Position numbers and translations under genes: made by a program. 64,000 nt of DNA from Dipteris shenzhenensis (Eukaryota): the NCBI GenBank assembly GCA_047967505.1, contig CM106538.1; one strand, 5' to 3'. Positions 18,250 through 55,764 of this stretch are shown here, piece after piece. Numbering within the stretch: the stretch's first letter is position 1; every line of letters begins with the position of its first letter. Below the pieces are notes generated by a model that was not told where the DNA came from, searched no databases, and saw nothing but the letters and a program-made list of their open reading frames with translations.

Positions 18250-19480
18250 ATGGACTACGATGCAAGAAAGAAGAGAGTGTCTGCGGAGGAAGAACTAGGA
18301 TAGAAGATTACTTGGTTATCAAGATGGATGAAAGAAGACTCTGAGAGTGTTTGCGGAAGGACTAGGATAGAAGAATACAAGTTAATGAGAAGCACTAGGA
18401 TGCAAGAAAGAAGAGAGTGTCTGCAAAAGAACTATGATAGAAGAATACTTGGTTATCAGGATGGATGAAAGAAGACTCTGAGAGTGTTTGCGGAAGGACT
18501 AGGATAGAAGAATACAAGAAGAATACAAGTTAATGTGAGAAGCACTAGGATGGATGAAAGAAGAGAGTGTTTGTGGAAGAACTAGGATAGAAGAATACTT
18601 GGTTATCAAGATGGATGAAAGAAGACTCTGAGAGTGTTTGGGGAAGGACTAGGATAGAAGAATACAAGTTACTCAGAAGGATACTTGGTTATCAGGATGG
18701 ATGAAAGAAGACTCTGAGAGTGTTTGCGGAAGGACTAGGATAGAAGAATACAAGTTACTCAGAAGGACTAGGATGTAAGAAATAAGAGAGTGTTTGTGGA
18801 AAGACTAGGATGGAAGAATACAAGTGCACTAAGGCACGATGTGTTCACTACGATAAGGATAAGGGTTGGAATAAAGTGAGTGGCACGATGTGTTCACTAT
18901 GATAAGGGTTGGAATAAAGCGAGTGGAGATTGAATGCTCTACTTTAAGTGAGTGGAGATGATAAGGATAAGGGTTGGAATAAAGTGAGAGAAGCATTGCG
19001 AATGCTCTACTTTAAGTGAGTGGAGACTGTCCAACTGAATAAAATTCTCATTACACAAGGATTTATTTCCAAATAATCACATCATCACACATTCATATCA
19101 TAAAATTGTGTGCATGAAGAAATATATTACAAATATTACATCATCACATATTCATATCAAAATTCTCATCACACAAGGATTTATTTTCAAATAATCACAT
19201 CATCACACATTCATATCATAAAATTGTGTGCATGAAGAAATATATTACAAATATTACATCATCACATATTCATATCAAAATTCTCATCACACAAGGATTT
19301 ATTTTCAAATAATCACATCATCACACATTCATATCATAAAATTGTGTGCATGAAATAAATATATTACAAATATTACATCATCAAATATTCATATCAGAAT
19401 TCCCATCACACAAGGATTTATTTCCAAATAATCACATCATCACACATTCATATCATAAAATTGTGTGCATAAAGAAATTA
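18250..19480. repeat. Tandem repeats between the helical ORF and the protease gene
   Basis: gaaggactaggatagaagaatac-type units at 18250-18830; 118-bp unit x~3.7 at 19041-19480. Confidence 0.85.
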
Positions 19481-19568
19481 TATAAATATCATGATTATGC
19501 CACTTAAGTAATAAGTCACAAATTGGTGTATAATCAACAAAAACTACAAACACAACATCATACATGCA

Positions 19569-26789: not shown

Positions 26790-27923
26790 AATCCTACAAG
26801 AAAAGATAATGAAGAATTTAGATACATACAAGTAAAGTACAATATACAACCCTTGATACAATAAATGTGGAAAATAGCCCAAAAGGCTTTACAAGGCTTC
26901 ATATGGCAATAAATGTGGGAAATAGCCTAAAAGGCTTTACAAGGCTTAAATATTTGTACAAATGTAAAAGAATTAGCCAATAAAGCTTTACAAGTAATAT
27001 AAAATGTCGTCTAGTGATAAAGCTTCAATCTTCGTGAAGATTCATGTAATCTATCCATCCATTGATATCTGAGCACTGATACCCAACTGTTGCAATCTAT
27101 CCACTAAAAACTGTTCCACTGATATCCACTTATGCAGCCCACATGATATCCGCTTATGCATCCCACTGATACTCGTTAATTAGTGAATGGTCGGGATGGT
27201 CGGGTTTATTACAAGGCGCTTCATATGACAATAAATGTAAAAAATAGCATAAAAGGCTTTACAAGGATTTTTATGACAATAAATGAGCTTAAATATTTAT
27301 ACAAATGCAATAAAAATAACCAATAATCATCAAGCTCCAATATGTCCCATGACATGTAATCTGTCCACTGATATATGCAATCTGTCCACTGATATCTGCT
27401 CATGCAATCTGTCCACTGATATTTGCTCATGCAATCTGCCCACTGATAAACTTCTTGGTAAATGGTAAAAGGTCTTATTTAATAGCATGTTATGAGTGTT
27501 AAACCGCATGTGAGCGAAGGGACTGACAACGAATAGGAACTAGTTAGAAAAATTTGAGCATGGCTTCGATTGGCAACTTGGAGAATTGTCTCTCCTCTAA
27601 GGCAATCTAATCTATGCTAAACTATGCTAAACCAACCGTCGAAGCGAAGAAAAGCAATAAATAATTTCTTTTTCTGTGTTCATTTTAATGTGCTGGGGTT
27701 TAAGAGGCTTAAATATGCAAAAGAAGGGGTTGTGATGTAGAGGCTAAACCTGCATGTGATATAAATAAAGAACAAGTATCTAAAGAAAAGTTAACATTTT
27801 TCAATTTAAAAGATGAATATATATAAAAACATTATCTCACTTTCAAAATAAACCATAAATTCACTCTTTTATAATTTTTTAAAAGTATAATATAAAGTAT
27901 GTAAATATATAAAACTCTCTTTA

Positions 27924-27925
<2 letters not shown>

Positions 27926-27966
<41 letters not shown>

Positions 27967-28183
27967 CCTAAATCTCTTTGCAGCCATAGTCAAGACACCT
28001 CATTCTCTCTCTTAATCTCTCTCTCTCTCTCTATAACTCTTAAACCCTAAACCCTAAACCCTAAACCGGCTTCTCTCTCTTAATCTCTCTCCCTCTCTCT
28101 CCTCTCTCTTTCTTTCTCTCCCTACTCTTCTCTCTCATTTAAAAATATAATATAAAAGATGTAAATATATAAAACTCTCTTTA

Positions 28184-28217
<34 letters not shown>

Positions 28218-28367
28218 CTAAATCTCCTTGTAGTCATAGTCAAGACACCTCATTCTCTCTCTTAATCTCTCTCTCTCTCTCTTTGACAACTCTTAAGTAT
28301 TTTTCTCTCTATCCTCATCCCACTTATTCTCTCTCTCCCTCTCTCTCCCTCTAGCACAGAAGTTTCA

Positions 28368-28403
<36 letters not shown>

Positions 28404-28920
28404 TCTCTCCCTAAGTCTCCCTCTTCTCTTCTCTCTCTCTCTCTCTTTTCCTCTCTCCTCTCGCCACGTTTCATTCCTATAAACTTTCTCTCTCTCTCCC
28501 TCTCTCTCTTTCTCTCTCTCCCTCTCTCTCTTTCTCTCTCCCTCTCTCTCCCTCCCTCAAGTAGCCACGGCCCCCAAGAGACCCGCTTCTCTCTCTTAAT
28601 CTCTCTCCCCCTCTCTCCTCACTCCTTACCAGCTTCTCTCTCTTAATCTCTCTCCGCCTCTCTCCTCTCTCTTTCTTTCCCTCCCTACTCTTCTCTCTCT
28701 TAATCTCTCTCCGCCTCTCTCCTCTCTCTTTCTTTCCCTCCCTACTCTTCTCTCTCTTAATCTCTCTCCGCCTCTCTCCTCTCTCTTTCTTTCCCTCCCT
28801 ACTCTTCTCTCTCATTTAAGGAGCCCCTATTCTCTGTGTGAATCTCTCTCTCTCTCTCTCCCTCTCTTAAGGAGCCCCTCTTCTCTCTCTTAATTTCTCT
28901 CTTTCCCTCCCTCCCTATTC
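27926..28920. repeat. (CT)n microsatellite and CT-rich repeats with a short (CCCTAAA)3 tract at ~28041-28067
   Basis: Directly visible; includes a ~59-bp unit x3 at 28630-28810. Confidence 0.9.
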
Positions 28921-30113
28921 TCCCATTTCTCAAATTTACAAACTCGAATATAAATAAAAAACTAATTAAAATAGAACTCAAAAACTCAAATAAGAAACTA
29001 ATCCCTATTCTCCCATTTCTCAAATTTACAAACTCGAATATAAATAAAAAACTAATTAAAATAGAACTCAAAAACTCAAATAAGAAACTAATTTAAAAAG
29101 AATTGTAATGCCTTCTAAAAGACCACCCTCCTCAAAAACTTTAAGAATAAACTAATTGAAAAAGAATTATAAGTAAAGAAAAAGAATTACAATACGAATT
29201 TTAAGAAATAGAACTCAAAAACCTTAACAAGAAACTAATTGAAAAGAATTGTAAGTAAAGAAATAGAATTACAAGACGAATAAAAAAGAATGCAAGTACC
29301 TGGAAAAAGTGGAAAAAGTGAAAAAAGTAAGGCTCGGCTTATCCTTTCTCTTCCGCTCTTGGTTGCTTCAATGAAACGAGGAGAGAGTTAAAACTAGTCC
29401 ACTCCTACACATAAATTTGAATTTTCAAAAAAGAGAGGGAAATTTGAATTCATTATAAATTTGAATTCAAATTTGTGTTCAACATTCTTCTTATACGTTC
29501 CTTTTGAATTCAAATTTATGTTCAACATTCTTCTTGATACTTTCTTCAACATTCTTCTCGATTCTTGTAAGTCCTTTTCATTCTCGTAAGTCCTTTTCAT
29601 GTAAGTCCTTTTCATTCTCGTACGTCCTTTTCATTCTTCTCGTAAGTCAAATCTTATTTTTCGTTCTTGCTCGTGATAGTAAGTCAAATCCTCCTCTCCC
29701 ATCTCTCTCTCCTTCTCTCTCTCTCCTCTCTCTCCTCTCCTTCCCTCCATCCATCCCTCGACCCAATCCTCTCCTCCAACCTCCTTCCCTCCCCTCCCCT
29801 TCCTCCGCCGCCAAAACTCCTCCCTTCCCTCCGCTCTCCCTCCTTCCCCAAAATCCCTCTCCCCTCTTGCTACCCTTCCCCTCTCCCGTCGCCTAACCTC
29901 TTCCTCCCCTACCCCTTTTTCCCCCTACCCCTTTTAACCTTCCTAAATTTTCCCCACCCCCCTTGGCGACCCCCCCAACCTTTCCACCCTCTTCCCCACT
30001 CTCCCTTTGGCCCCCCCTCCCTCCTTCCTTGGCGACCCCCCCCTCCTCTCACCCAGCTCCCCCTCCGCCCTCCCTGGGGCTGGCCGCCAGCCCCCCCCTC
30101 TCCTCACTCCCTG

Positions 30114-31591
30114 GGCTGGCGGCCGCGGCCGCCAGCCCCCCCCCCTCCTCACCCAGCCCCTCCCCCTCTTCACCCTCCCCCCCTCTTCCCAACCCACCCA
30201 TCCCGCTCCCTGGCTGGCGGCCGCGGCCGCCAGCCCCCCCCCTCCTCTCACCCAGCCCCCCCCTTCTCCTTCCTCTCTCCCTAGGCTGGCGGCCGCGGCC
30301 GCCAGCCCCCCCCCCCTCCCTCTCACCCACCCGCCACCCCTCCCCCCCCTTCACCCTCCTTGGCTGGCGGCCGCGGCCGCCAGCCCCCCCCCCCTCTCCT
30401 CTCTCCCTTTCCCGCTCCCTGGCTGGCGGCCGCGGCCGCCAGCCCCCCCCCCCTCCTCTCACCCACCCCCCACCCCTCCCCACCCATCCCGCTCCCTGGC
30501 TGGCGGCCGCGGCCGCCAGCCCCCCCCCCCTCTCCTCTCTCCCTGGCTGGCGGCCGCGGCCGCCAGCCCCCCCCCCCCTCCTCTCACCCACCCCCCACCC
30601 CTCCCCACCCATCCCGCTCCCTGGCTGGCGGCCGCGGTCGCCAGCCCCCCCCCCCCCCCTCTCCTCTCTCCCAGCCCCCCCCCCCTCTCCTCTCTCCCTG
30701 GCTGGCGGCCGCGGCCGCCAGCCCCCCCCCCCCTCCTCTCACCCACCCCCCACCCCTCCCCACCCATCCCGCTCCCCTGGCTGGCGGCCGCGGCCGCCAG
30801 CCCCCCCCCCCCTCTCCTCTCTCCCCCCTCCTCTCACCCAGCCCGCCCCCCCTCTCCTCTCTCCCTGGCTGGCGGCCGCGGCCGCCAGCCCCCCCCCCCT
30901 CTCCTCTCTCCCCCCTCCTCTCACCCAGCCCCCCCTCTCCTCTCTCCCTGGGCTAGCGGCCGCGGCCGCCAGCCCCCCCCCCTCTCCTCTCTCCCAGCCC
31001 CCCCCCCCCTCTCCTCTCTCCCTGGCTGGCGGCCGCGGCCGCTTGCCCCCCCCCCCCTCCTCTCACCCACCCCCCACCCCTCCCCACCCATCCCGCTCCC
31101 TGGCTGGCGGCCGCGGCCGCCAGCCCCCCCCCCCCTCTCCTCTCTCCCAGCCCCCCCCCCCTCTCCTCTCTCCCTGGCTGGCGGCCGCGGCCGCCAGCCC
31201 CCCCCCCCCTCCTCTCACCCACCCCCCACCCCTCCCCACCCATCCCGCTCCCTGGCTGGCGGCCGCGGCCGCCAGCCCCCCCCCCCCTCTCCCTCTCTCC
31301 CCCCTCCTCTCACCCAGCCCGCCCCCCCTCTCCTCTCTCCCTGGCTGGCGGCCGCGGCCGCCAGCCCCCCCCCCCTTCTCACCCACCCCCCACCCCTCCC
31401 CCCCTCCTCTCACCCAGCCCCTCCCCCTCTTCACCCTCCCCCCCCGCTTCCCAACCCACCCCCCCCCTTCCCTGGGCTGGCGGCCGCGGCCGCCAGCCCC
31501 CCCCCCCCCTTTCGCAACCCCTCCCCCACCCCCCCTTCCCCCCCTCAGCCGCTCCCCCACCCTCCCGGGCTGGCGGCCGCGGCCGCCAGCC
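30114..31591. repeat. Array of 19 copies of the 24-bp palindrome GGCTGGCGGCCGCGGCCGCCAGCC in C-rich spacers
   Basis: Counted by eye: 16 perfect, 3 with 1-2 mismatches; period roughly 55-145 bp. Confidence 0.92.
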
Positions 31592-31994
31592 CCCCCTCTT
31601 CACCGCGCCCCCCCCCCTCCCCCTCCTCCCCCCTCCCCCCCCTCTTCACCCTCCCCCCCCTCCCCCCCTCAGCCGCGGCTCCCTCCCTCCCCCTCTCAGC
31701 CGCTCCCCCCTCCTCTCGCTGCGCCCCCCCTCCCCCTCTCAGCCGCTCCCCCCTCCTCCTCCCAGCCTCCCCTCTGCACCCACCCGCTTCCCTCCCACCC
31801 GCCGCGCCAGCCTCCCCTCCCACCCTCACACCCACCTCCCTCTTCGCCCCTTCTTCCCCTCCCTTCCTCCTCCCTCCCGTCCCACCCTCTTCCTCCCCTC
31901 CCTTCCTCCTCCCTCCCCTCCCCTGAACCTTTCTCTCTCTAATTTCTCTCTCTTTAAATTTTAAAAAAGAAACTAGAAAAAAAAGTTTGCAAGT

Positions 31995-32230
31995 ACCTGG
32001 AAACAGTTTGTAAGTTTGCTCTTTCTTGCTTTCTTGCTCTTCCTTCCTTGCTCTCTTGATCGTCCTTGCTTTCTTGCTTGAATGAAATGAGGGGAGAAAG
32101 AATGAATGAAGGAAGACTATATATAAGAAAAATTAGGTTTTCCTCCTCCTCTCCTATTGGCTTTCCATTCCTCCCCTCTCTCCTATTGGCTTTTCATTTA
32201 TCTCCTCTCCCATTGGCTCCCATTACTCCC
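31995..32230 (-). promoter_or_regulatory. Putative promoter and non-coding first exon of the ParB-Ulp1 gene
   Basis: On -: several CCAAT boxes (32155-32220), AAAACCTAA, TATATATA (~32118-32126), then a CCAG|GTAC donor at ~31998. The same arrangement occurs at 55540-55735 in the host copy. Confidence 0.55.
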
Positions 32231-32889
32231 CCTCTCCTATTGAACCCCCATCCCTCATCCATTAGCCCTCCTCCCATCCATCCATTTCTTCTTCCTCCCC
32301 ATTGCCACCACTCCCATCCCACATTTCCACCACGTCCCATTTTCCAAAATCCCATATTTCCCCATCTCACCCTTCTCTTTTTCATCCCCTATTAACTTCC
32401 TCACTCATTTCACTCCCTTATTAGCCTACTCCCCTATTACTTTCCCCTCTCCCATTCCATTCTTCCCTCCCCACTCTCACTTCCACTTCCCATTACTCAC
32501 TTGCCATTTAAAAACTATTAATATATTATTATACTATTTTTTATACTAATTATCATACACCCTTATTACTTCCCTATCCGATTCCACTCCTCCCTCCTCA
32601 TTCCCACTTCCACTTCCCATTACTCACTTGCTATACACATTTGCAAACTATTAATATATTATTACATGATTTTTTATACTATTTGTAAACTTACATATGG
32701 GCAAAATCACAGGTGTCAAAGCGATCCTATTGTGGTCATACAACAACTGTGCTTTTATTCAAGGGTATATTTATCCTCATCAACAAGCTTATTTACTCAA
32801 GGTATGAAGTGCATAATTTGTGCACTAGGTGTTTACTTTGTGCCAAAATTGTTTGCCACACACACACACACATATACATATACCTAGAA

Positions 32890-35800
32890 TTTTCTAATAT
32901 TATCGCATCTACATTTCTCCAATGGGCATAAAACTTTGTACACTCCTCAACCTAGGTCTTATTGACTTGCATTCAAAGTGGTGCACCCATCTCATAAGTA
33001 CTTGTTCGGATAACACACCTCCTATGTATTTTATGACGATTGTGCATACCACTAGGAACAAAATGGTGTATCATGTGAGACAGACTATGCAAAGCATATG
33101 CAATGGACACAAGACTTTACACGTTCCTCAACCTAGGCAGTATTGACTTGTGTGCAAAGTGGCATCCCCATCCGATAAGTACTTGTTCGAAAAATACACC
33201 TACGATCGTGTTTTTTGACGATTATGCATGACACTAAGGCAATAATGGTGTTTTATGCTTGATCGACAATGCAAAGCATATCCGATGGGCACAATACTTT
33301 GCACACACCTTCAACTAGGTAGAATCGACTTACATGCAAAGTGGCATGCCCATCCCATAAGTGCTTGATCCTATAACATACCTAGAAACGTGTTTTTTGA
33401 CGGATGTGCATGACACTAGAGTAAAAATAGTATTTAATGCTCGATAGACCATGCAAAGGATATCCGATGGGCACAAAACTTTTCGTACGCCTCAACCTAG
33501 GTGGTATTGAAATGTTCTCAATGAGGCACACCCATCCGATAAGTACTTGGTCGGATAACACACCTAATGGCGTGTTTTTTTGTGAATGTGCATGTCATTA
33601 GGAAAAAAATGATGTATAATGCGTGATCGACCATGCAAATCATATCCGATGGTGACAATACTTTGTACGCACCTCAACGTAGTTAAAAAGGACTTGCGTG
33701 CAAAGTGGAGCCCCCATATGATAAATATTTATTTGAATAACACACCTATGGCCGTGTTTTTATATGGTTGTGCATGACACTAAGGCAAAAACGGTGTGTT
33801 ATGCTTGATCGACAATGCAAAGCATATCCGATGGGCACGATACTTTGCACACACCTTCAACTAGGTGTAATTGACTTACATGCAAAGTGGCACGCCCATC
33901 GCATAAGTGCTTGATCAGATAACACACCTAGCAGTGTGTTTTTTTACGAATGTGCATGGCACTAAGGCAAAAATGGAATTTAATGCTCGATCGACCATGC
34001 AAAGCATAACCTATTGGGCACGATACTTTGCACACACCTTCAACTAGGTGGAATTGACTTACATGCAAAGTGGCATTCCCATCGCATAAGTGCTTGATCG
34101 GATAACACACCTAGCAGCGTGTTTTTTTACGGATGTGCATGGCACTAAGGCAAAAATGGTATTTAATGCTCGATCGACCATGCAAAGCATATCCGATGGG
34201 CATAATACTTTTCCTATACCTCAACCTAATTGTTATTAAAATGTTGTCAAAGAGGCACATCCATCCGATAAGTACTTGGTCAGATAACATACCCAAGGGC
34301 GTGTTTTTTTGCGGATGTGCATACCACTAGGGAAAAAATGGTGTATAATGCGTGATCGACCATGCAAATCATATCCGATGGTGACAATACTTTGCATGCA
34401 CCTCAATGTACTTAAAACGGACTTGCGTTCAAAGTGGAGCCCCCATCTGATAAGTACTTATTTGAATAACACACCTATGGCCGTGTTTTTATATGATTGT
34501 GCATGACACTAAGGCAAAAACGGTGTGTTATGCTTGATCAACCATGCAAATCATATCCGAAGGTGACAATACTTTGCACACACCTCAAACTAGTTGAAAC
34601 GGACTTGCGTGCAAACTAGAGCCCCCATCCGATAAGTACTAGTTTGAATAACACATCTAGGACTGCGTTTTTTTACGAATGTGCATGACACTAAGATAAA
34701 AACGGTGTTTTATGCTTGATCGACAATGCAAATCATATCCGATGGGCACAATACTTTGCACACACCTTCAACTAGGTAGAATCGACTTACATGCAAAGTG
34801 GCATGCCCGTCCCATAAGTGCTTGATCCTATAACATACCTAGAAACGTGTTTTTTGACGGATGTGCATGACACTAGAGTAAAAATAGAATTTAATGCTCG
34901 ATAGACCATGCAAAGGATATCCGATGGGCACAAAACTTTTCGTACGCCTCAACCTAGGTGGTATTGAAATGTTCTCAATGAGGCACACCCATCCGATAAG
35001 TACTTGGTCAGATAACACACCTAATGGCGTGTTTTTTTGTGAATGTGCATGTCATTAGGAAAAAAATGATGTATAATGCGTGATCGACCATGCAAATCAT
35101 ATCTGATGGTGACAATACTTTGCACGCACCTCAACGTAGTTAAAACGGACTTGCGTGCAAAGTGGAGGCCCCATCTGATAAGTATTTATTTGAATAACAC
35201 ACCTATGGCCGTGTTTTTATATGGTTGTGCATGACACTAAGGCAAAAACAGTGTGTTATGCTTGATCGACAATGCAAAGCATATCCGATGGGCACAATAC
35301 TTTGCACACACCTTCAACTAGGTGGAATTAACTTACATGCAAAGTGGCACGCCCATCGCATAAGTGCTTGATCAGATAACACACCTAGCAGCGTGTTTTT
35401 CTACGGATGTGCATGGCACTAAGGTAAAAATGGTATTTAATGCTTGATCCACCATGCAAAGCATATCCGATGGGCACAATACTTTGCACATACCTTTAAC
35501 TAGGTGGAATTGACTTACATGCAAAGTGGCACGCCCATCGCATAAGTGCTTGATCAGATAACACACCTAGCAGCGTGTTTTTTTACGGATGTGCATGGCA
35601 CTAAGGCAAAAATGGAATTTAATGCTCGATCGACCATGCAAAGCATATTCGATGGGCACGATACTTTGCACACACCTTCAACTAAGTGGAATTGACTTAC
35701 ATGCAAAGTGGCATTCCCATCGCATAAGTGCTTGATCGGATAACACACCTAGCAGCGTGTTTTTTTACGGATGTGCATGGCACTAAGGCAAAAATGGAAT

Positions 35801-38800
35801 TTAATGCTCGATCGACCATGCAAAGCATATCTGATGGGCATAACACTTTACCTATACCTCAACTTAGGTTGTATTAAAATGTTGTCAAAGAGGCACACCC
35901 ATCTGATAAGTACTTGGTCAGATAACATACCTAAGGGCGTGTTTTTTTGCGAATGTGCATGCCACTAGGGAAAAAACGGTGTATAATGCGTGATCGACCA
36001 TGTAAATCATATCCGATGGTGACAATACTTTGCACGCACCTCAACGTAGTTAAAACGGACTTGCGTGCAAAGTGGAGGCCTCATCTGATAAGTATTTATT
36101 TGAATAACACACCTATGGCCGTGTTTTTATATGGTTGTGCATGACACTAAGGCAAAAACAGTGTGTTATGCTTGATCGACAATGCAAAGCATATCCGATG
36201 GGCACAATACTTTGCACACACCTTCAACTAGGTGGAATTAACTTACATGCAAAGTGGCACGCCCATCGCATAAGTGCTTGATTAGATAACACACCTAGCA
36301 TCGTATTTTTTTACGGATGTGCATGGCACTAAGGCAAAAATGGTATTTAATGCTCGATCAACCATGCAAAGCATATCCGATGGGCACAATACTTTGCACA
36401 TACCTTTAACTAGGTGGAATTGACTTACATGCAAAGTGGCACGCCCATCCCGTAAGTGCTTGATTGGATAACATACCTATCAGCGTGTTTTTTTACGGAT
36501 GTGCATGAAACTAGAGCAAAAATAGTATTTAATGGTCGATCGACCATGCAAAGCATATCCGATGGGCACAATACTTTGCACACACCTTCAACTAGGTGGA
36601 ATTGACTTACATGAAAAGTGGCACGCCCATCGCATAAGTGCTTGATCAGATAACAAACGTAGAAGTGTGTTTTTTAACGGATGTGCATGGCACTAAGGCA
36701 AAAATGGTATTTAATGCTCGATCGACCATGCAAAGCATATCCGCGATTGGCACGATCCTTCAACTAGGTGGAATTGACTTACATGCAAAGTGGCATTCCC
36801 ATCGCATAAGTGCTTGATCGGATAACACACCTAGCAGCGTGTTTTTTTACGGATGTGCATGGCACTAAGGCAAAAATGGTATTTAATGCTCGATCGACCA
36901 TGCAAAGCATATCCAATGGGTAAAATACTTTTCCTATACTTCAACTTAGGTCGTATTAAAATGTTGTCAAAGAGGCACACCCATCCGATAAGCACTTGGT
37001 CAGATAACATACCTAAGGGCGTGTTTTTTTGCGGATGTGCATACCACTAGGGAAAAAACAGTGTATAATGCGTGATCAACCATGCAAATCATATCCGATG
37101 GTGACAATACTTTACACCTCAACCTAGTGGAAACGGACTTGCATGAAAATTGGAGCCCTTATCCGATAAGTACTAGTTTGAATAATACACCTAGGACCGT
37201 GTTTTTTCATGGTTGTGCATGACACCAAGGCAAAAACGGTGTCTTATGCTTGATCGACAATGCAAAGCATATCCGATGGGCACAAAACTTTGCACACACC
37301 TTCAACTAGGTGGAATCGACTTACATGCAAAGTGGCACACCCATCCCATAAGTGCTTGATTGGATAACATACCTAGCAGCGTGTTTTTTGACGGAAGTGC
37401 ATGACACTAGAGTAAAAATAGTATTTAATACTCGATTGACCATGCAAAGGATATCTGATGGGCACAATACTTTTCACACACTTTCAACTAGGTGGAATTG
37501 ACTTACATGCAAAGTGGCATTCCCATCGCATAAGTGCTTGATCGGATAACACACCTAGGAGCGTGTTTTTTTACGGATGTGCATGGCACTAAGGCAAAAA
37601 TGGTATTTACTGCTCGATCGACCATGCAAAGCATATCCGATGGGCATAATACTTTTCTCATACCTCAACCTAGGTGGTATTAAAATGTTGTCAAAGAGGC
37701 ACACCCATCCGATAAGTACTTGGTCAGATAACATACCTAAGGGCGTGTTTTTTTGCGGATGTGCATACCACTAGGAAAAAAACGGTGTATAATGCGTGAT
37801 CAACCATGCAAATCATATCCGATGGTGACAATACTTTGCACACACCTCAACCTAGTGGAAACGGACTTGCATGCAAATTGGAGCCCTTATCCGATAAGTA
37901 CTAGTTTGAATAACACATCTAGGACTGCGTTTTTTTACGAATGTGCATGACACTAAGATAAAAACGGTGTTTTATGCTTGATCGACAATGCAAAGCATAT
38001 CTGATGGGCACAATACTTTGCACACAACTTCAACTAGGTGGAATCGACTTACATGCAAAGTGGCACGCCCATCCCATAAGTTCTTGATCGGATAACATAC
38101 CTAGAAGCGTGTTTTTTGACGGATGTGCATGACACTAGAGCAAAAATAGTATTTAATGCTCGATCGACCATGCAAAGCATATCCGATGGGCACAAAACTT
38201 TTCGTATGCCTCAACCTAGGTGGTATTGAAATGTTCGCAATGAGGCACACCCATCCGATATGTAATTGGTCAGATAACACACCTAGTAGCGTGTTTTTTT
38301 ACGGATGTGCATGGCACTAAGGCAAAAATGGTATTTAATGCTCGATCCACCATGCAAAGCATATCCGATGGGCACGATACTTTGCACACACCTTCAACTA
38401 GGTGGAATAGACTTATATGCAAAGCGGCACGCGCATCCCATAAGTGCTTGATTGGATTACATACCTAGCAACGTGTTTTTTGACGGATGTGCATGACACT
38501 AGAGCAAAAATAGTATTTAATGCTCGATCGACCATGCAAAGCATATCCGATGGACACAAAACGTTTCTTACGCCTTAACCTAGGTGGTATTGAAATGTTC
38601 TCAATGAGGCACACCCATTCGATAAGTACTTGGTCAATTAACACACCTAATGGCGTGTATTTTTGCGGATGTGCATATCATTAGGAAAAAAATGGTGTAT
38701 AATGCGTGATCGACCATGCAAATCATATCCGATGGTGACAATACTTTGCACGCACCTCAATATAGTTAAAACGGACTTGCGTGCAAAGTGGAGCCCCCAT

Positions 38801-41130
38801 CTGATAAGTACTTATTTGAATAACACACCTATGGCCGTGTTTTTATATGGTTGTGCATGACACTAAGGCAAAAACGGTGTGTTATGCTTGATCGACAATG
38901 CAAAGCATATCCGATGAATACAATACTTTGCACACACCTTCAACTAGGTGTAATTGACTTACATGCAAAGTGGCACGCCCATCGCATAAGTGCTTGATCA
39001 GATAACACACCTAGCAGCGTGTTTTTTTACGGATGTGCATGGCACTAAGGCAAAAATGGTATTTAATGCTCGATCGACCATGCAAAGCATATCCGATGGG
39101 CACGATACTTTGCACACACCTTCAACTAGCTAGAATCGACTTACATGCAAAGTGGCATGCCCATCCCATAAGTGCTTGATCCTATAACATACCTAGAAAC
39201 GTGTTTTTTGACGGATGTGCATGACACTAGAGTAAAAATAGTATTTAATGCTCGATAGACCATGCAAAGGATATCCGATGGGCACAAAACTTTTCGTACG
39301 CCTCAACCTAGGTGGTATTGAAATGTTCTCAATGAGGCACACCCATCCGATAAGTACTTGGTCAAATAACACACCTAATGGCGTGTTTTTTTGCGGATGT
39401 GCATATCATTAGGAAAAAAATAGTATATAATGCGTGATCGACCATGCAAATCATATTTGATGGTGACAATACGTTGCATGCACCTCAACGTAGTTGAAAC
39501 GAACTTGCGTGCAAAGTGGATCCCCCATCTGATAAGTACTTATTTGAATATCACACCTATGGCCGTATTTTTATATGGTTGTGCATGACACTAAGGCAGA
39601 AACGATGTGTTATGCTCGATCGACAATACAAAGCATATCCGATGAACACAATACTTTGCACACACCTTCAACTAGGTGTAATTGACTTACATGCAAAGTG
39701 GCACGCCCATCGCATAAGTGCTTGATCAGATAACACACCTAGCAGCGTGTTTTTTTACGGATGTGCATGGCACTAAGGCAAAAATGGTATTTAATGCTCA
39801 ATCAGCCATGCAAATCATATTGGATGGCCACGATAATTTGCACACATCTTCAACTAGGTGTAATTGACTCACATGCAAAGTGGCATTCCCATTGCATAAG
39901 TTCTTGATCGGATAACACACCTAGCAGCGTGTTTTTTTACGAATGTGCGTGGCACTAAGGCAAAAATGGTATTTAATGCTCGATCGACCATGCAAAGCAT
40001 ATCCGATGGGCATAATACTTTTCTTATACCTCAACCTAGGTGGTATTAAAATGTTGTCAAAGAGGTACACCCATCCGATAAGTACTTGGTCAGATAACAT
40101 ACCTAAGGGCGTGTTTTTTTGCGGATGTGCATACCACTAGGGAAAAACGGTGTATAATGCGTGATCGGCCATGCAAATCATATCTGATGGTGACAATACT
40201 TTGCACACACCTCAACCTAGTTGAAACAGACTTGCGTGCAAACTAGAGCCCCCATCCGATAAGTACTAGTCTGAATAACACATCTAGGACTGCGTTTTTT
40301 GACGAATGTGCATGGCACTAAGGCAAAAATGGTATTTAATGCTCGATCGACCATGCAAAGGATATCCAATGGGCACAAAACTTTTTTTACGCCTCAACCT
40401 AGGTGGTATTGAAATGTTCTCAATGAGGCACACCCATCCGATAAGTACTTGGTCAGATAACACACCTAATGGCGTGTTTTTGTGCGAATGTGCATATCAT
40501 TAGGGAAAAAATGGTGTATAATGCGTGATCGACCATGCAAATCATATCCGATGGTGACAATACTTTGCATGCACCTCAATGTAGTTAAAACGGACTTGCG
40601 TGCAAAGTGGAGCCCCCATCTGATAAGTACTTATTTGAATAACACACCTATGGCCATGTTTTTATATGGTTGTGCATGACAGTAAGGCAGAAATAGTGTG
40701 TTATGCTTGATCGACAATGCAAAGCATATTGGATGGGCACAATACTTTGCACACACCTTCAACTAGGTGGAATTGACTTACATGCAAAGTGGCATTCCCA
40801 TCGCATAAGTACTTAATCGGATAACACACCTAGCAGCGTGTTTTTTTTATGGATGTGCATGATAGGAGCAAAAATAGTATTTAATGCTCGATGGACCATG
40901 CAAAGCATATCCGATGGGCACAACACTTTTTGTACACCTCAACTAGGTGGAATTGACTTACATGCAAAGTGGCACCCGCATCCGTACCTAGTGTTTGATT
41001 GGATACGTACCTAGTAGGCTCATGTTTTTTTACGGATGTGCATGACACTAGAGCAAAAATAGTATTTAATGCTAGATTGACCATGCAAAGGATAACTTGG
41101 CATGTCCATCTGATGAGTATTTGATCGCAT
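32890..41130. repeat. 182-bp satellite, ~45 monomers, several recurring subtypes
   Basis: Period 182 (e.g. gataac at 34101 and 34283). Each unit contains the dyad GATGGGC-N5-ACTTTGCA...TGCAAAGT-N5-GCCCATC. Confidence 0.95.
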
Positions 41131-41258
41131 AACTTCTCCCACTAATAAATTAAGTACTAATTAAAAATTATAATAAATAAGTAGATTATTAAAAAGAGAC
41201 TAATATTTATGTAATTGTTGCCACTGCAGCTTGCTTGCGAAGGACTCTCACAAAGGAG

Positions 41259-44200
41259 ATGGCTATAGATTTTGTTCCAGGGATGGATGTGATTTTATGT
41301 AGCAAAAGAGAAGTAGTTGCATTTGCTACAATCCATGATAGTGATCCCAATTCTCTTTGCCACTTTCGAAGACTTGGCGAAGATAAGGTAGCAGTTACTG
41401 TATCAAAGATTCTTAGCGCACATGTTGAGCTAAAGTATAAATGTGGAGATATGGAAACACTTGGAGATGTTATGCCCTACAATACATCCAACAAATCATT
41501 TATAGCATGGGACAAAGATGAGACTTATGCAACAGACATTATCAAGAATACAAAGTGCACCACCTTGGATTTTACTATAGGGGACATTCTACAAATGAGA
41601 TCATTTGCAAATAAGATTGTAGCAGAAGGTGAAGTATTGGGATTTGAACAAGTGGAGCAATGGTCATTTGCGCAGATGAGGATTCTAAAAGTCACTGATG
41701 ATGGTATGGTTGATAACATAACATCCTTATGTGATCCCTACTATGAGGTAGGCAAGAATATGAGATGGAGCATGCAATTTTTAAACATGAGAAAGAGGCA
41801 CGTGGTTTTCAATGATAAAGACAACGCATACTACAATATCAAAGGACCTAAAAAGCGTGCCCATGTGCCAGGCTCTATCACTTCAAATGTGGATGATTTC
41901 AATATACTCAATTATAGAAGTGACATCTTATCTGGAGTGGATGAGTTCATTGGTTCCAAGAAACAAAATGATTTTAGAAGCGAAGCCTTATCTGGGGTGG
42001 ATGAATTCTTGCACAGTGAGAAGGGCAAAGGTTTCAATAGCGATGTCTTGTCAAGTGTGGATGAGTTCATGCATATTAACAAACCTGGTGTCAATCAAGG
42101 TTGTGGATTTGTGAAATCCATGCAAGATGTCCCAATGAGTGATGTTCTCTCAGGAGTGGAAGAGTTTCAAGGTTCTCAATACTCTCGTAGAATATTGAAT
42201 TCATTGAATGGTCCTAAGAGTATGTTAAAAATGAGGATGAGATCAACAGAGGATTATTCAGTATTTAACTTTGATTGTGATATGAACAAGGATGCAACGA
42301 CCAATCATGGATGCTTGGTTACAAACAAATGTGAGGAGAAGAAGTGCATAAATACAGATAACAATGTGTACGAGGAACGAAAACGGTCATACATATGCAT
42401 GAAGAGAAAGAGAATCCAGGCAGATCCACAAAAGCAACCAAAGAGGAAGAGAGTAATGAAGGAGGAGAACATGTTAAATGCATTGGGATATCTATGTTGC
42501 AAGCGAAGATGTATGCGCTTCATTGATCTTGCAGACATCAGGGAATGTAGAGGACACGTGTGGCAAAGAAGGGGAAGCGAAAGAAATGAATACCTTCTCA
42601 CAAGTCTCTCTTGCTTTCTTCAGAATGGCAATAAAAGGCTAAGTTCAAGACAAAAGGTAAAACCTCTCGTAAATGGAAAAAGGATTTGCAATAAGGCATA
42701 TCGCAATATTACTGGATTATCCCATGGTACATATTGGGATTTAGTCACCAAGGCAAAGGGCGGCAACAAATTTAGCATTCACGGTAATAGAGGAAGGTCC
42801 AAATCAAGAATCTCAACTGTCAGGGCAGCAGCAATTTTACAAGACTTCATACATGAAAATGCTTTGCCTCAACCCCATATATCTACCAAACTCCCTAACG
42901 GTGACGCGATCACTGAAATGCACCTTCCAATGGGCTTGACAAAGCTCGAAGTATTTGACTCTATTGCAGAAAAGCAAAGGCAAAGAGGGGATGCTGTAGC
43001 TTCTTCTCATACTTTGTATACTCTTTGGAAGAAGAACTTTGGATATGTTAAAATCCCAAGGAGGCAAAAAATGTCAAAGTGCAATGTCTGTGATGATTTA
43101 AAGCGAGCGATTGAGAGTGCAACATGTCCAAATCAAAGGGAATTATACAAAAAAAACTGAAAATCTCATCATGACCTTATTCGACATTCCAGACAAAAAT
43201 ATGCATTTTGGAAGGAGCAAGCTATTTCGCATCCTGATGACTACATGTGTCTTATTGTAGATGGCATGGATCAGAATACAACAACATTGCCTCGTTTTGT
43301 TGCCACTCCACCTAAATTACAAGGAAAGCACTTTCTAAAGACACATCTATGTGTAGTGTTAGTGCATGGAATTAAGTTCTTTGCAGATATATGGATTGAT
43401 TCCTTGCATCTACATGATAGCAATCAAGTTGTAACATCTATTATGAAGGCAATTCGCAATGTACATGCAGAAAAAGGTCGCCTGCCACCGACTTTGAGAA
43501 TACAAGCTGATAATTGCTGGCGAGAAAATAAGAATGTACTTATGTTTGCCTTCTGCTCCATGCTAGTTGCTCATCGAATCTTCAATGAGGTCGAATGTGG
43601 ATTTTTGTATGTTGGGCATACACATGAGGATATCGATCAAGTTTTTAGCACAGTCTCAACGGAGCTTAAATGCAAGGATGTGGAGACAATAGATGACTTG
43701 GTAAGAAGATGTGGCAGGCAAGTTGGTGGTCGTAAGGAAAGTACAGTATGTGAGAGGCTCGAAAGAATGTATGATTGGAAGAGCTTCATTCTACCTTTCA
43801 TACAAACGGGTGGTGATGCATTGACAGGTCATACCAATCCACACTACTTTCGTTTTTTTTTTAAAGATGAAAAACCCGTAATGCAATGGCAACAGTATTC
43901 TCATGATACAAAATGGGAACCTGAAGAACCTTACAGTCTCTTAACTTCAATTCCCAGCAAGGAAAGGTATCCAACATGGGCTCCTATACAAGAATTTAAT
44001 GAGAGGTCTAATTGTGAAATAGATGGATTAAAAGCATTTATTACATACAAAGAGGAAATGCTCCAGAGATATCCTGATTCGAAGCCTGCTTGGAGAGAAC
44101 ACACTACCACTGTAATTAACAAGACACGAAATTTAATAAAGGACCTTGAGAGAATGCGAGGCTCAAAGGATGTCAAGGAAGAATGCAATATGTTTTGGCC

Positions 44201-44729
44201 AAATGTTCATAACGATTTGCGCCCAGCTCCAGTCTTTGAAAATGATTTTGTATCATTACTCCCACGTCCATATTGTGGACCGAAGAAGAGAGAGTTTATG
44301 CCACAAGTAGATATAGAGGTTGATTGTTTTGTTGTGGTTCGGCCATCGGATGATGAATATGAGAATGTGAAGTTTTGGGTTGCAAAAGTAGTTGATGTGC
44401 AAAGAGATGACCAAGGGAGAGCTACAACATTTACAGCGGTATGGTATGAGCCAAAGGGCAGGAAGGAGAATATGGATAACAACACATTATATACTAATTG
44501 TATAATGAAGGAGTGGGTCCCAAATGATGAAGCAGTCTCTCAAGTTTCGACAGAGACAATCATAGTGTCTTGGCATTCAAGGGCAAAGAAATCAAAGAAG
44601 CACATGGGATATGAGGTAGAAGGAAAAATAAAAATACCACAGCAAACTATTTTGCATATACACGAATTTTTAAGGATGCTCGCCATGGAGGAAGTAGAAG
44701 GAGATAGCGCAAATGAAGAATGTCGATGA
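41259..44729 (+). pseudogene. Sola1-like DDD transposase (~1,155 codons) with a single in-frame stop at 43158-43160
   Basis: ORFs 41235-43160 and 43245-44729 are in the same frame. Motifs: CCKRRC, ICNKAY, KCNVC, IVDGMDQ, QADNCWRENKN, FLYVGHTHEDIDQ. Splice acceptor at 41229 with branch-like gactaat, then ATG at 41259. Confidence 0.85.
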
Positions 44730-46290
44730 TTAAAGCTTTGTATTGAAGTCCATTGATTTAGAAGGATTTTATTTGGGTACTAGGCAAGGAGCCAATCCAA
44801 GACAATTATAATCAGAGTCATCACCTCGTATGTCAAATAAGAGTCAAAATATGCACTGGATGTCACCCAAGGGTCAAGGCTTGCCAAGACACAATAGGGA
44901 GTTAATGCAGATGGCACCTGGCAAGGGACTATCACATTGAGCAATAAGACAATGGGGAGTCAATGCACCCAAGGGGCAAGGGTAGGCAAGATAACTTGTG
45001 GGAGTTAATGCAGATGGCACCTGTATTTTGCACTGGATGTCACCCAAGGGTCATACACGAATTTTTAAGGATGCTCGCCATGGAGGAAGTAGAAGGAGAT
45101 AGCGCAAATGAAGAATGTCCATGATTAAAGCTTTGTATTGAAGTCCATTGATTCAGAAGGATTTTATTTGGGTACTAGGCAAGGAGCCAATCTAAGACAA
45201 TTATAATCAGAGTCATCACCTCGTATGTCAAATAAGAGTCAAAATATGCACTGGATGTCACCCAAGGGTCAAGGCTTGCCAAGACAATAGGGAGTTAATG
45301 CAGATGGCACCTGGCAAGGGACTATCACATTGAGCAATAAGACAATGGGGAGTCAATGCACCCAAGGGGCAAGGCTTGGCAAGATAACTTGTGGGAGTTA
45401 ATGCAGATGGCACCTGTATTTTGCACTGGATGTCACCCAAGGGTCAAGGCTTGGCAAGACAACAGGGAGTTAATGCAGATGGCACCTGGCAAGGGACTAT
45501 CGCATTGAGCAATAAGACAATGGGGAGTCAATGCACCCAAGGGGCAAGGCTTGGCAAGACAAGCCTAGGTCAAATTATGCAGATGGCAACTGGCAAGGGA
45601 CTGTCGTGACATTGAGCAATAAGACAATGGGGTGTCAAATTATGCAGATGGCACGAATTGAGGCTCTTTAAGAGCAACAATTTAAATTGTAAACATATGT
45701 TCAATCTATATCATTTTGGATATAAAGACTGTAGCTAAGAGCAACGTCTCTCAATGTAATCATATACATAATTTAGCTACAATTGCTATTATCCCTCTTT
45801 GGTCTTATGGCATCATGTCTTCTTTCTATTTATTAAAAGTTTTGTTAAATTTTGTGCATATTGCCGAGTGACAATGTTATTTTCATGAAATATTTAAGTC
45901 TCCTTTCATGGATTTATAAATTTATCATGTCAATGAAAAACGTCAAGGAAAAATATTTAAAATAATTAAATTAACAAATAACTTAGATATAGCTAGAATT
46001 TCTAATATAGGATTATTTCAAATTCTTGCATGTTGGTGTAAAAGTATAGATTGAAAAAACAATATTTGTATGTGAATATGATAGAGCCACAAAGTGAACT
46101 TTTGATTTGGGAAGGAAAAACGTCAAGGAAAAATATTAAAAATAATTAAATTAACAAATAACTTAGATATAGCTAGAATTTCTAATATAGGATTATTTCA
46201 AATTCTTGCATGTTGGTGCAAAAGTATAGATTGAAAAAACAATATTTTTATGTGAATATGACAGTGCCACAAAGTGAACTTTTGATTTGG
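44658..46290. repeat. Sub-terminal duplications: 395-bp duplication including the transposase 3' end, ~175-bp units, and a 180-bp unit x2
   Basis: cacgaatttttaagg at 44661 and 45056; tgcactggatgtcaccc at 44852, 45029, 45247 and 45422; gaaaaacgtcaagg at 45935 and 46115. Confidence 0.85.
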
Positions 46291-46397
46291 GAAGAAACTT
46301 TTTAGAAAGTAAAATTTTGATTTGGAAAGGATATTTTCATAAAGTAAAGTTTTCATTTGGGAAGGATTTTTGGGCTTCGTCCAAAAACAACACAAAA

Positions 46398-46423
46398 AGT
46401 CCAAAATTAATGAAATAGGTGTT
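46398..46423 (-). repeat. Right TIR
   Basis: AGTCCAAAATTAATGAAATAGGTGTT followed by TSD AAAT. Confidence 0.95.
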
Positions 46424-46461
46424 AAATAAGAGAGTAAAAGAAAGATTGAGACCATACTTAC

Positions 46462-49400
46462 TTCTCATAGTATGGCATAAAGACAAGTAGTATGCCATCC
46501 AAGTCTAAAGGTTGTAGAATTGAACAAACATCATCTACTATCTTCTTGGTATCACTAAGTACAGCTGAAAGAAGAGAATCGAGCATACAAACGCGATTCT
46601 GTACTAATCTAGGAAAATGAGATATAACCGTACTACAGCAATAAATAAACAAATGTTAGAAGCAGATTGAATCAAATGATTGAAGTATCAAGTCAAGAGA
46701 TGTTCATATCAAACCTGAGGATGGCCATCATGACTTTGTCATTAGCCTCTTTCAAAGGGTCGGAGAGGATTATAACTTCCTCGCTACCAAAAGCCAAAAC
46801 ACGAGGTTGCTTGCTAATGATGACCTTAACCTCAGAAGAGCTCCCCATTTCGTCCAATACAGCGGTTACATCAGGACAACTTATGGGCGTAGCAACCAAT
46901 GTTTCCTCTGGATGCTCCACCACGTTATCAATAAATGCCTTAATGATAGATGACATAAATGCATATAGATGCAAGTCTGTATATGTGGACAATGAGGTTT
47001 CACCGCCTCTCAAATCAAAAATTTGAGCAAGGAGCAAGAAGCAGTTATATCCAACTCTCCACCCACAACTGTGGTCATCATTCTGCTTCGCTGCAGGGCA
47101 TGTTACATACTCTATTTGATCTTCCAAGTCACCCTCCATTTGCATAAGTGCATCTGTAGCACTTACCAACTTTCGAGCAGATCTACACATCAAAATAGAA
47201 AACATAAATGAATGTGCGCATTGCATAGGATGCATCTCATTGACATAATTATGACACAAGTAGGTTATACTTACTCTGACACACTGCCATGGATAGATGC
47301 TATTGAATTGACAAAGAAGCATTGCTTGGCTAAGATGTCCACAATTACCAAGCTCCAATGCAAGCTGCATTATCAATTAAGAATAATTATTATTTAATAT
47401 AATCCTCCACAATGTAAGAGATAAGCTAGGTAGGGATTGATACTCACTCCTCGTGATATGCGGTAAAGATAACTCGCGCCGCAGTCAAATCAATAGGTTG
47501 CAACCACCTAAAAATGTCATCTATGGTCTTCTCCTTATTGCTAAGTACACTAGAAACAAGAGGATCGACCATATATGCACATCTTTGTATATATAGCGGA
47601 AGCTGTTGTAAAACCATACTGCAATAAAAAGAAAAGAATATTAGTTCATTTGATCCAATGGAAATACAAAAGCATAAAGTCAGTAAAAAGTTTGTGTCAA
47701 ACCTGAGGATGGCTATTATAACCTTGTCATTGACCTCTTTCTTGAAGTTTATGAGGATTGAAATATCCTCTTCATCGAATATAAAAGTAAGAGGTTGTTC
47801 TTGAACTTGAAACCTAACTTGAAATGACTTCTCCATTTGCTGCAATGTATGATTATTTTCTAGAGTCATCCGATGGATAGCCAGAGCAGCTTTGCTTTCT
47901 TGAGATGAGCTTTCATGATTCTCTGCTCCAACTATGTCCTCCTCATCCTCCTCCTCTCCCTTCTCCTATAAAAGGATAAAATAATTATGAGATTCAAAAT
48001 TTTAAATTAATTATAAATTTAAAAAGACCTTTAAATGAATAAAGAAAATTAAACATAAGTCTTCATACCTCTACATATCTTCGTGGTCTTTTTATGTAAC
48101 CTTCAGAGGCAAGGTCAGTGTCATATCCATCTTCCTCTGCTTCCTTGCTATCGCTGGTATCCTCACTATTATATCCAGAGCTTTGATCATTTTCATCATC
48201 TTTCTTGCTCTCATCGTACATGATCTGCTCTATGTCATCCTCTTCATGTGAGATCGGACCTTTCTTATCAAACTTTATTGTGAGAGAAGCCACGGTATCA
48301 AGGTATTCCAAGCAAGTAGGGCTCTCAATAATATTTACATTGTGTCCTTTTCTGATAAGAGCTTCAAACAGATGTCCCATTCGGCACAATGTGACTTCCC
48401 ATCCAGACGGTAGCAAAAATTCCATCATACTAATTAAAAGATCAGCACTTTTTGCTGGCCTTTCATAGTGATTTGCATTGCGATGGAGGGGACTTGGAGC
48501 TTCATGCTCTTCCAGCAGTAGTTGCAATCTCTTTGCATTCCCTCTTATATTGTTTTGTAAGGAGTGATCATTATAAGGGCTCTTCATGCACAAGAAAAAG
48601 GTTTCTAGACTCGGTATCTTGAGACCGCATTCTCTCTTGTCCCTTTTTCTTGAGTATATCCCATTGTAAATCTTGAGCTCATTGCCATATTGTTTTTCTA
48701 GGGTAGCAGACATTTGTTCCTTGTCATCTTTATCAGCAAATATGACTATATTACATTGTCCCACTCTACCAATGGTGGTATGTAATATTCTGTCAAGGAG
48801 TGGATGGATGTCATCCGCTGATATTTCATAGACAAAGAAAAGCTGAGGTCTCTCCCAAGCAGTGTCGTCGGACAAAAAATCACTCAATGAAACTCCCTTG
48901 CACTCAACACTCTTTCCAGACTCTGAAATGATTTCATGTATGAAATAAAAGCCCTTGTTCAAAGTCTTTTCTTTTCTGAGAGTGTGGTTATTGATGACTT
49001 TTTGTGCATATGCATACACATTTTCCGGAATGTCACTTCTCATAGAGGGAGTAATTTCAGATCCATCATCTTCTACCTTCACCCATTTATGCGCCCAAGC
49101 CTTCTATTTAGTTGACGGTAAAGCTGATGCCATCTGCCTCACAATGTTATGATCAATTTTACATTGGCTGATTGGAATATTTTTTTCTCCCAATAAATAT
49201 TCAATTGCACTCTTTACTGCATCACGCTTGACCTGTTGGATGATGTTATCTTCCATGCAATGATCTTTATCCTTTTTGCCAAAAAACCATTCTTTTGACA
49301 TTAATTTCTCTGCAGCAAGACTTGCGTATTTATCTGGTAGGTTTCTTAAAGGCCTCCACATCCGAGCTGTCATCTCTTTTTTCTCAATCTTCTTTTCCTT

Positions 49401-55735: not shown

Positions 55736-55764
55736 CTATTAGATTATCTTCTCTCTCTCTCCCA

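Follow-up and report, generated by a model that had tools for sequence, protein, structure and literature searches.

The window analysed here, a stretch of 64,000 nucleotides from contig CM106538.1 of the Dipteris shenzhenensis assembly GCA_047967505.1, contains a giant cut-and-paste transposon (element E1) that carries an 8.2-kb tandem array of 182-bp monomers in the spacer between its two divergent genes, one for a predicted DDE-type transposase (gene A) and one for a large accessory protein (gene B). E1 is nested in an older copy of the same family (E2), in which the same point of the spacer is filled with telomere-type repeats, and the junction between the array and the DNA upstream of the transposase gene recurs in other individuals. 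With a probability of about 0.6, we read the array as passenger DNA in a hypervariable spacer of the transposon. It is a good example of an existing kind of structure rather than a new kind, as satellite arrays inside transposons with terminal inverted repeats (TIRs), including the CACTA element Jozin and Tetris, are already known.

Extent and anatomy of the array

32918..41133, plus strand: 182-bp array; 45 monomers, four main types, B-E-C-D higher-order unit, diverged edge monomers

Tandem Repeats Finder placed the array at 32918-41094 (period 182, 45.0 copies, 77% matches, 2% indels, score 8164), and a monomer profile moved its end to 41133 by adding a last, degenerate unit. All 45 monomers, each 169-183 nt long, are arranged head-to-tail in the plus orientation, and at 8.2 kb the array qualifies as satellite DNA in the sense of head-to-tail monomers of at least 100 bp extending over kilobases. 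An earlier reading made from the sequence alone (the sequence-only reading) had described an 8.2-kb block of about 45 nucleosome-sized monomers that a TIR transposon carries a short way 5′ of its transposase exon. Both parts of this description are borne out, in that the block is real, lies inside E1 and ends approximately 125 bp 5′ of the ATG (41259) of the transposase open reading frame (ORF).

The junction between the array and the transposase upstream region is also bridged by contigs from two public sequencing runs, X1 (record 1, covering 41044-41338) and X2 (record 9, covering 41079-41331). These runs come from two studies, and their transposase gene shows about 1% difference from that of the window; the public runs that match the window DNA are labelled as algal metagenomes. 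Since two independent runs bridge the same junction, an assembly artefact is unlikely. Contigs that loop back by about one period were likewise present in both X1 and X2.

Clustering resolved the monomers into four main types, with 11 copies of B and 10 each of C, D and E, as well as the singletons A, F, G and H at or near both edges. Along the array, the types follow the order ABCD BECD BBCD BEECD BEEECD BECD BCECD BECD BECD FD BGH, which corresponds to a higher-order unit of four monomers with a variable number of E monomers, and thus to the homogenised subfamily structure expected of a satellite. Identity is 0.89-0.915 within types and 0.73-0.815 between them, and the closest monomer pairs (0.978-1.0 identity) are found at lags of 5, 8, 24 and 32 monomers. 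The higher-order unit, the block-sized lags and the poorly homogenised edges are what unequal exchange, together with conversion of blocks of several monomers, would be expected to leave. With respect to an RNA-gene origin of the monomer, no Rfam family reached its gathering score within the window; a SCARNA7 match at 32820-32971 remained below threshold (20.2 bits vs 65).

The carrier element and its nesting in a second copy

17247..46424, plus strand: element E1, carrier of the array; 29,178 bp, exact 27-nt inverted word at both ends
17247..17273, plus strand: left TIR of E1, exact 27-nt word
46398..46424, minus strand: right TIR of E1, exact 27-nt word
14166..17246, plus strand: left part of E2; begins with a TIR at 14166-14192 (1 mismatch), cut by E1
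46425..63135, plus strand: remainder of E2; family homology to 61024, then another repeat that also occurs at 10441-12250

The terminal repeats of E1 consist of the word TAACACCTATTTCATTAATTTTGGACT, which occurs exactly at 17247-17273 (plus) and 46398-46424 (minus), and with one mismatch at 14166-14192 (plus), where E2 begins. These three matches compare with 0.00 expected from 100 shuffles, and they provide the ends that characterise a TIR transposon. When E1 was excised in a script, a 1914-bp blastn high-scoring segment pair of E2 homology spanned the resulting junction, and the left ends of E1 and E2 aligned at offset 0 (66 nt, 82%). Taken together, the continuous homology across the junction and the matching left ends indicate that E1 is a complete copy inserted into E2, an older copy of the same family; a second element in the window, as reported in the sequence-only reading, is thus indeed present. 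The right end of E2 was not found within the window.

The flanks of E1 permit a 4-bp AAAT target duplication, or a 2-bp AA duplication if the repeat starts with TA. Target duplications of 4 bp are a feature of Sola elements. With the duplication removed, the interrupted stretch of E2 measures 17 nt between anchors, the same as in its E1 paralogue, although this is weak support.

Self-comparison of the window with blastn revealed two diverged copies of one large unit, each with the order minus-strand gene of about 1100 codons, 4-5 kb spacer, tandem array, and long plus-strand ORF. E2 is the more decayed of the two, its transposase gene (A2) being broken and truncated and its accessory gene (B2) interrupted by stops. 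The B1 and B2 proteins are 51% identical, and A1 and A2 are 53-80% identical over their aligned segments. Within E1, the array lies 15.7 kb and 5.3 kb from the two ends. No inverted repeats were found adjoining the transposase gene or flanking the array, which argues that the array is internal cargo of E1 and not a separate insertion with recognisable ends of its own.

A hypervariable site upstream of the transposase gene

27900..32703, plus strand: spacer; CT microsatellite, C-rich minisatellites (78-nt unit x 10.9), 127-nt x 2 repeat
32704..32917, plus strand: E1-only DNA, about 214 bp, between the last E1/E2 homology and the array
56742..57688, plus strand: degenerate telomere-type array of E2, (TTTAGGG)n, at the place of the 182-bp array of E1

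Homology between E1 and E2 ends at about 32703/56741 and returns at about 41150-41179/57700-57749. Between these limits, E1 holds approximately 214 bp of unique DNA followed by the 182-bp array, whereas the E2 interval consists entirely of a degenerate telomere repeat of the plant type, about 0.95 kb or roughly 135 heptamers long. Of 57 exact TTTAGGG words in the window, 56 lie within 56-58 kb, so that this block represents an interstitial telomeric repeat; its variants include TTGGGGG and TTAGGG, and its G-rich strand reads towards the transposase gene. The 182-bp monomer itself is absent from E2 and from the rest of the window, as judged by an nhmmer profile whose four matches outside the array had E values of 0.87-7.2.

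Further copies of the family diverge at the same point. Specifically, two contigs of X2 and two of X3 match the transposase side and are unlike the window upstream of 41152/41160, and the upstream loose ends of these contigs do not occur in the window at up to 4 substitutions. With at least three different fillings at a single point, we conclude that this is a hypervariable site, and that the array does not belong to the conserved parts of the element.

The adjacent spacer is of unusual composition, with a GC content of 0.774 and a GC skew of -0.64 at 30-32 kb of E1. C-rich minisatellites (plus strand) occupy 29970-31950 in E1 and 53660-56665 in E2, with GC contents of up to 0.774; the 78-nt x 10.9 unit of E1 includes GGCGGCCGCGGCCGCC, and the units of E2 measure 111 nt. 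Long spurious frames appear among the ORFs over these minisatellites. On the gene B side of the CT-rich spacer of E1 is a run of (TAAACCC) x 3.9 at 28041-28067, and two exact CCCTAAA words are found in the matching kilobase of E2 (52-53 kb). The short TAAACCC run is perhaps a remnant, or a promoter word of the telobox kind.

Origin and turnover of the array

In terms of mechanism, these observations are consistent with a model in which the spacer between the divergent genes, composed wholly of tandem and low-complexity DNA, takes up different DNA in each copy at one point approximately 100 bp 5′ of the transposase start codon. The pyrimidine/purine-asymmetric, G-run-rich tract beside this site would favour stalling and breakage, and breakage there may be what drives the turnover. 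Breaks would then be repaired with whatever DNA was available, perhaps a few monomers in the case of E1 and repeats made by telomerase in that of E2, and the resulting arrays would subsequently grow in place by slippage and unequal exchange. Conversion of multi-monomer blocks could account for the four-monomer unit, the variable number of E monomers and the poorly homogenised edges. The first monomers either arose at the spot or were captured from elsewhere, and the array is probably confined to the E1 locus or lineage.

A different account of the same site is that the array is a captured host satellite, for example of subtelomeric origin, with further arrays elsewhere in the genome; an exchange with DNA of a chromosome end would have left E1 the satellite and E2 the telomere repeats. 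The telomere-type repeat that E2 has at this site (approximately 0.95 kb) and the roughly 214 bp of E1-only DNA that accompany the array are both in keeping with capture, as are a divergence among monomer types equal to that of the two elements and a CpG depletion milder than in the surroundings. There is also a precedent, as a 171-bp satellite of Chenopodium is described, in the passages of the source used here, as lying inside CACTA elements yet occurring without them in another species (PMC8978399).

The abundance of the monomer points the other way. Contigs of X1 and X2 were mapped once, on 40860-45100, a region that includes about 1.3 monomers; nothing from a further run, X5, mapped there, to which no weight is given. 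Summed depth over the monomer bin (40860-41001) was 1043 in X1 and 391 in X2, against approximately 48-180 and 8-30, respectively, over the transposase bins; these values are sums over contigs and not copy numbers. Within the window, matches to the monomer bin at 80% identity or more amount to 25.7 bin lengths per 1-2 transposase copies. The summed monomer depth in the two runs is therefore about what one array would yield and, although the measure is weak, calls for no monomers beyond the E1 array. Moreover, all eight of the monomer-side loose-end variants from the runs that were checked occur inside the array with 0-2 mismatches, and a 22-nt monomer word had no match in the JGI metagenome contigs, a collection that may not include this organism. 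On balance we consider capture of a host satellite possible but rather unlikely. Among 80 loci of distant transposase relatives (409,416 bases, mostly short contigs, 25-42% identity), no telomere runs were found and repeats with a period of at least 30 reached no more than 6.5 copies, but loci this short and this distantly related are hardly informative.

Several points weigh against our preferred reading of the array as passenger DNA in a hypervariable spacer. The lack of a function is something that we infer rather than a result, and the depth argument draws on contigs of related individuals. In addition, the four monomer types differ by 18-27%, which is as deep as the divergence of E1 and E2 transposase DNA (about 80% identity), and E2 has no monomer even though the type divergence matches the E1/E2 split. 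This agreement implies that the array is old. Either its monomers had diversified before it was acquired, or the E2 lineage once had the array and later lost or replaced it, so that birth in place after the split of E1 and E2 is not the sole reading.

A further point of this kind is that the observed/expected CpG ratio of the array, 0.82, exceeds the values of 0.33-0.46 obtained elsewhere in the element and window (genes A1, A2, B1 and B2, the E1 left arm, and positions 1-14000). At consensus CpG sites across the array, 180 of 315 cells read CG, 97 read TG or CA, and 38 read otherwise. The CpG level of the array could reflect a different origin or a different methylation state; by our own estimate, however, the excess is not significant when the 45 monomers are counted as a single 182-nt sequence with 7 CpG.

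The sequence-only reading had also suggested that the element can seed satellite arrays. Our results do not support this: the sister element E2 has telomere-type repeats and no monomer at that spot, other copies of the family diverge at the same point, and the contig depth, weak as it is, needs no extra monomers. The array would move along with the element, and we see no sign of a satellite having been spread.

The transposase gene and its upstream region

41259..44729, plus strand: gene A1 of E1; 1156-codon ORF for a DDE-type transposase (DUF7869), single in-frame TGA at 43158-43160
57827..61025, plus strand: gene A2 of E2; frameshifted and with many stops, cut short at A1 residue 989
41150..41258, plus strand: transposase upstream region; conserved, AT-rich, TATA-like words; promoter/5′ untranslated region or intron end

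Gene A1 carries the DUF7869 domain (PF25273; E value 1.1e-52 against Pfam), as do all 27 of its database relatives, the best of which is 35% identical (E value 1.2e-87). An alignment of 13 sequences shows an invariant D, D and E in IVDGMDQ, QADN and HTHEDID, the pattern that characterises DDE transposases. Judging from this conservation, A1 is probably a DDE transposase, with the invariant D, D and E as its putative catalytic triad. The A1 profile had no match among PDB sequences, and no paper was found in the literature under the name DUF7869. The in-frame TGA at 43158-43160 directly follows eight A residues, in a stretch that aligns in frame with the relatives, and is either a nonsense change that renders the copy non-autonomous or a base-call error; this position is not among the listed differences of the public contigs.

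Given the location of the array directly upstream of gene A1, the question arises whether it lies within an intron, as the sequence-only reading considered probable on the basis of an acceptor-like site at 41229 in both elements. The sequence of this site is indeed conserved. Its AG falls 96 nt past the array end, positions 41179-41320 align with 57749-57890 of E2, and both copies keep CAG|CTTG, preceded by a stretch rich in pyrimidines, 30 nt ahead of the ATG. An intron in the 5′ untranslated region would moreover be compatible with passenger DNA. Other features weigh against it. The conserved block of about 80-110 nt starts directly after both arrays and contains TATA-like AT-rich words, such that a core promoter may fit equally well. 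On the other side of the arrays, the two elements share no more than weak similarity in low-complexity sequence, with no conserved exon and no GT donor shared by the two elements (GTAAAC occurs in E1 only). Furthermore, the ORF beginning at ATG 41259 already has 330 residues before the aligned part, compared with 162 in the best relative, and therefore needs no upstream coding exon. In our assessment an intronic position is distinctly unlikely.

The accessory gene and a possible binding platform

23574..26888, minus strand: gene B1 of E1; intact 1104-codon stop-to-stop frame, middle ParB/Srx-like by predicted fold, C-terminal part possibly a degenerate N4/N6 methyltransferase fold
48063..51497, minus strand: gene B2 of E2; 2 in-frame stops within a 3435-nt frame

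Genes A and B are divergent, B1 lying on the strand opposite the transposase. The sequence-only reading referred to a ParB-like cargo, and our results are divided on this point. At the level of sequence profiles there is no ParB assignment: B1 matched no Pfam family, with no ParB at an E value of 10 or below, a word-indexed sequence search returned none of 8000 candidates, and comparison with PDB sequences gave no useful match. Among 1.84 billion representative sequences, B1 had 14 weak matches (best E value 6.8e-17), and 7 of these 14 carried no informative Pfam family. These matches share the block TNxR ... LRP ... (V/I)DGQH..AC ... RLN, whose (V/I)DGQH..AC part presumably resembles the DGQHR motif; the NCBIfam DGQHR model matched 1 of 10 B-family members at an E value of 0.14, and on another stretch.

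At the level of predicted structure, there is weak support for a ParB/Srx-like fold. A model of the middle region of B1 had a predicted local distance difference test score (pLDDT) of 64.8 overall and 70-88 in the core. Foldseek returned nothing at an E value of 0.001 or below, and in an exhaustive VIA wide structure search the top 6 of 48,161 chains were all of ParB/Srx type. These six had Z scores of 4.7-6.0, which are in the middling range, with root-mean-square deviations (rmsd) of 2.9-4.3 over 89-123 aligned residues. The best was PadC (Z 6.0, rmsd 2.9, 96 aligned), and the others were plant and human sulfiredoxins (5.4 and 4.7), KorB (5.2), pNOB8 ParB-N (5.1) and a serine kinase (4.7). 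The middle part of B1 may accordingly be described as ParB/Srx-like in a weak sense based on this model, and such a fold does not imply segregation.

The C-terminal part of B1 was modelled poorly (pLDDT 48.0), and its longest matches were N4/N6 DNA methyltransferases (Z 3.9-5.0, 118-139 aligned, rmsd 4.9-6.9). The place of the catalytic motif in the alignment of the B family reads FFINEV, FFVYEI or FFINEL, and no (D/S/N)PP(Y/F) motif is visible in this alignment, which suggests that the methyltransferase-like domain may be inactive.

With an accessory protein of this type encoded in the same element, the array could in principle be a cis-acting binding platform for protein B, conferring a chromatin state of its own or a segregation function. 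Plasmid partition sites are made of tandem repeats, and were the analogy to hold, the array would be a eukaryotic transposon counterpart of such a site, aiding persistence of an excised copy or establishing the chromatin of the element itself, and the telomere-type array of E2 would serve as another such platform in the equivalent position. B1 is indeed intact, the best matches of its middle region are ParB/Srx folds, and the consensus monomer holds an imperfect dyad. In addition, accessory proteins of giant algal transposons that combine ParB and methyltransferase parts are suggested, in the passages of the report used here, to bind and modify their own element (PMC12477816). The array is absent, however, from the sister element and from other copies, and is hence no feature of the family. 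The fold matches have middling Z scores, and neither Pfam nor NCBIfam gives a significant ParB or DGQHR match. A conserved dyad in the monomer was considered and rejected, as a perfect stem of at least 6 bp forms in only 2 of 45 monomers and column conservation over the dyad is 0.844 compared with 0.851 for the whole monomer. We therefore regard a binding platform as highly improbable. A centromere or segregation role, also raised in the sequence-only reading, is not supported, the argument for it coming from the 182-bp length only, and length by itself does not define a centromeric satellite; on present evidence the array has no bearing on centromere origin.

Separately, language-model features of B1 residues 340-1075 placed it nearest to fungal clusters of the ESM Atlas (scores 0.94-0.95, with 169-183 of 256 features shared), in which 17-51% of proteins carry DUF3723. 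B1 itself showed no Pfam match to DUF3723 at an E value of 10 or below. DUF3723 is described, in the passages of the source used here, as a conserved accessory gene of the fungal Starship giant transposons (PMC9156397), and giant transposons of fungi and algae may share this type of accessory protein.

Relation to known systems

A close parallel is Jozin, a CACTA-like element of Chenopodium quinoa whose 16.5-kb length, as given in the part of the report drawn on here, includes a 5,550-bp array (171 bp x 32.5) (PMC8978399). As in E1, the monomers are of nucleosome size and form a kilobase-scale array that a TIR transposon holds internally, beside its coding part (PMC8978399). The same account places the Jozin array near the 3′ end of the element, in at least four copies with consensus monomers that are 97.7-98.8% alike and with dispersed signals in fluorescence in situ hybridization (PMC8978399). 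In the family of E1, unlike Jozin, the array is present in one of two copies, between divergent genes and upstream of the transposase, and the transposase is of the DUF7869 type compared with Transposase_21 in Jozin, according to the same passages (PMC8978399).

In Drosophila virilis, the foldback transposon Tetris gave rise to the TIR-220 satellite, as its partial account here states (PMC4079207). Here too, internal tandem repeats of about 200 bp in a DNA transposon can grow into satellite-like arrays of kilobase size (PMC4079207). The Tetris repeats lie within the TIRs, and arrays outside the element are documented in the passages concerned (PMC4079207), whereas the array of E1 is internal and none outside it was seen within the window. 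Plant long terminal repeat (LTR) retrotransposons are likewise described, in the source passages, as carrying short internal tandem arrays that expand into satellites, which were mapped to primary constrictions (PMC7004042). The resemblance is that short arrays in dispersed elements occasionally expand, as those passages have it (PMC7004042), the carrier in E1 being a DNA transposon.

For the element as a whole, a close match by description is Sola-1 of Ectocarpus, a 21.5-kb element for which the source passages report an opposite-strand gene that combines ParB-like and N4/N6 DNA-methyltransferase parts, with a product of 1104 aa (PMC12477816). Both are giant TIR elements (21.5 vs 29.2 kb) with a large accessory gene on the opposite strand, of 1104 aa in Sola-1 as far as the source describes it (PMC12477816) and of 1104 codons in E1, although E1 has a weak methyltransferase signal (pLDDT 48, Z 4.4-5.0) from a domain that may be inactive. 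The description of Sola-1 in those passages mentions no satellite array (PMC12477816).

With respect to the telomere-type repeats of E2, the relevant comparison is with interstitial telomeric repeats inserted at double-strand breaks, reported in the passages used here as short TTAGGG blocks of vertebrates (PMC2246262, PMC8537989). In both cases an internal telomere-type block is found where relatives have other DNA. The E2 block differs in its unit, a degenerate TTTAGGG, in its length of approximately 0.95 kb and in its location within a transposon; break repair is a presumed mechanism for it.

What sets E1 apart is the combination of a DUF7869 carrier with a putatively ParB-like partner, the position of the array in the spacer between divergent genes, and the telomere-type repeats at the same point of E2. 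The window thereby offers a fully resolved example of a satellite-like array living inside a mobile element. As the turnover is pinned to one spot beside a long pyrimidine/G-rich tract, it is also a place to study the birth of arrays and of interstitial telomere repeats. Finally, giant DNA transposons whose accessory gene is ParB-like are few, and E1 is a probable algal addition to them.

Other features of the window

At the end of the A1 ORF, a 396-bp tandem duplication (98% identity) at 44658-45446 straddles the stop and places a second copy of the final 22 codons at 45053-45118. Additional tandem repeats (104 nt x 2, 180 nt x 2 and 35 nt x 2.9) fill the rest of E1 as far as the right TIR. 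Outside E1, a repeat at 10441-12250 and 61119-63135 (85% identity, with an inverted piece at 11791-11927 / 62755-62891) lies upstream of E2 and after the truncated A2, and is probably another mobile element.

Three minus-strand ORFs in the left arms of E1 and E2 (16441-16935, 19569-20168 and 20684-21226) share a word resembling CGWRVAYNC(M/F)L. A reading of these ORFs as Ulp1-like proteases was dropped, there being no Pfam match for 19569-20168 and 20684-21226. An inverted repeat is also present at 12465-12593 / 12719-12847, with arms of 129 nt that are 95% complementary and separated by a 125-nt spacer.

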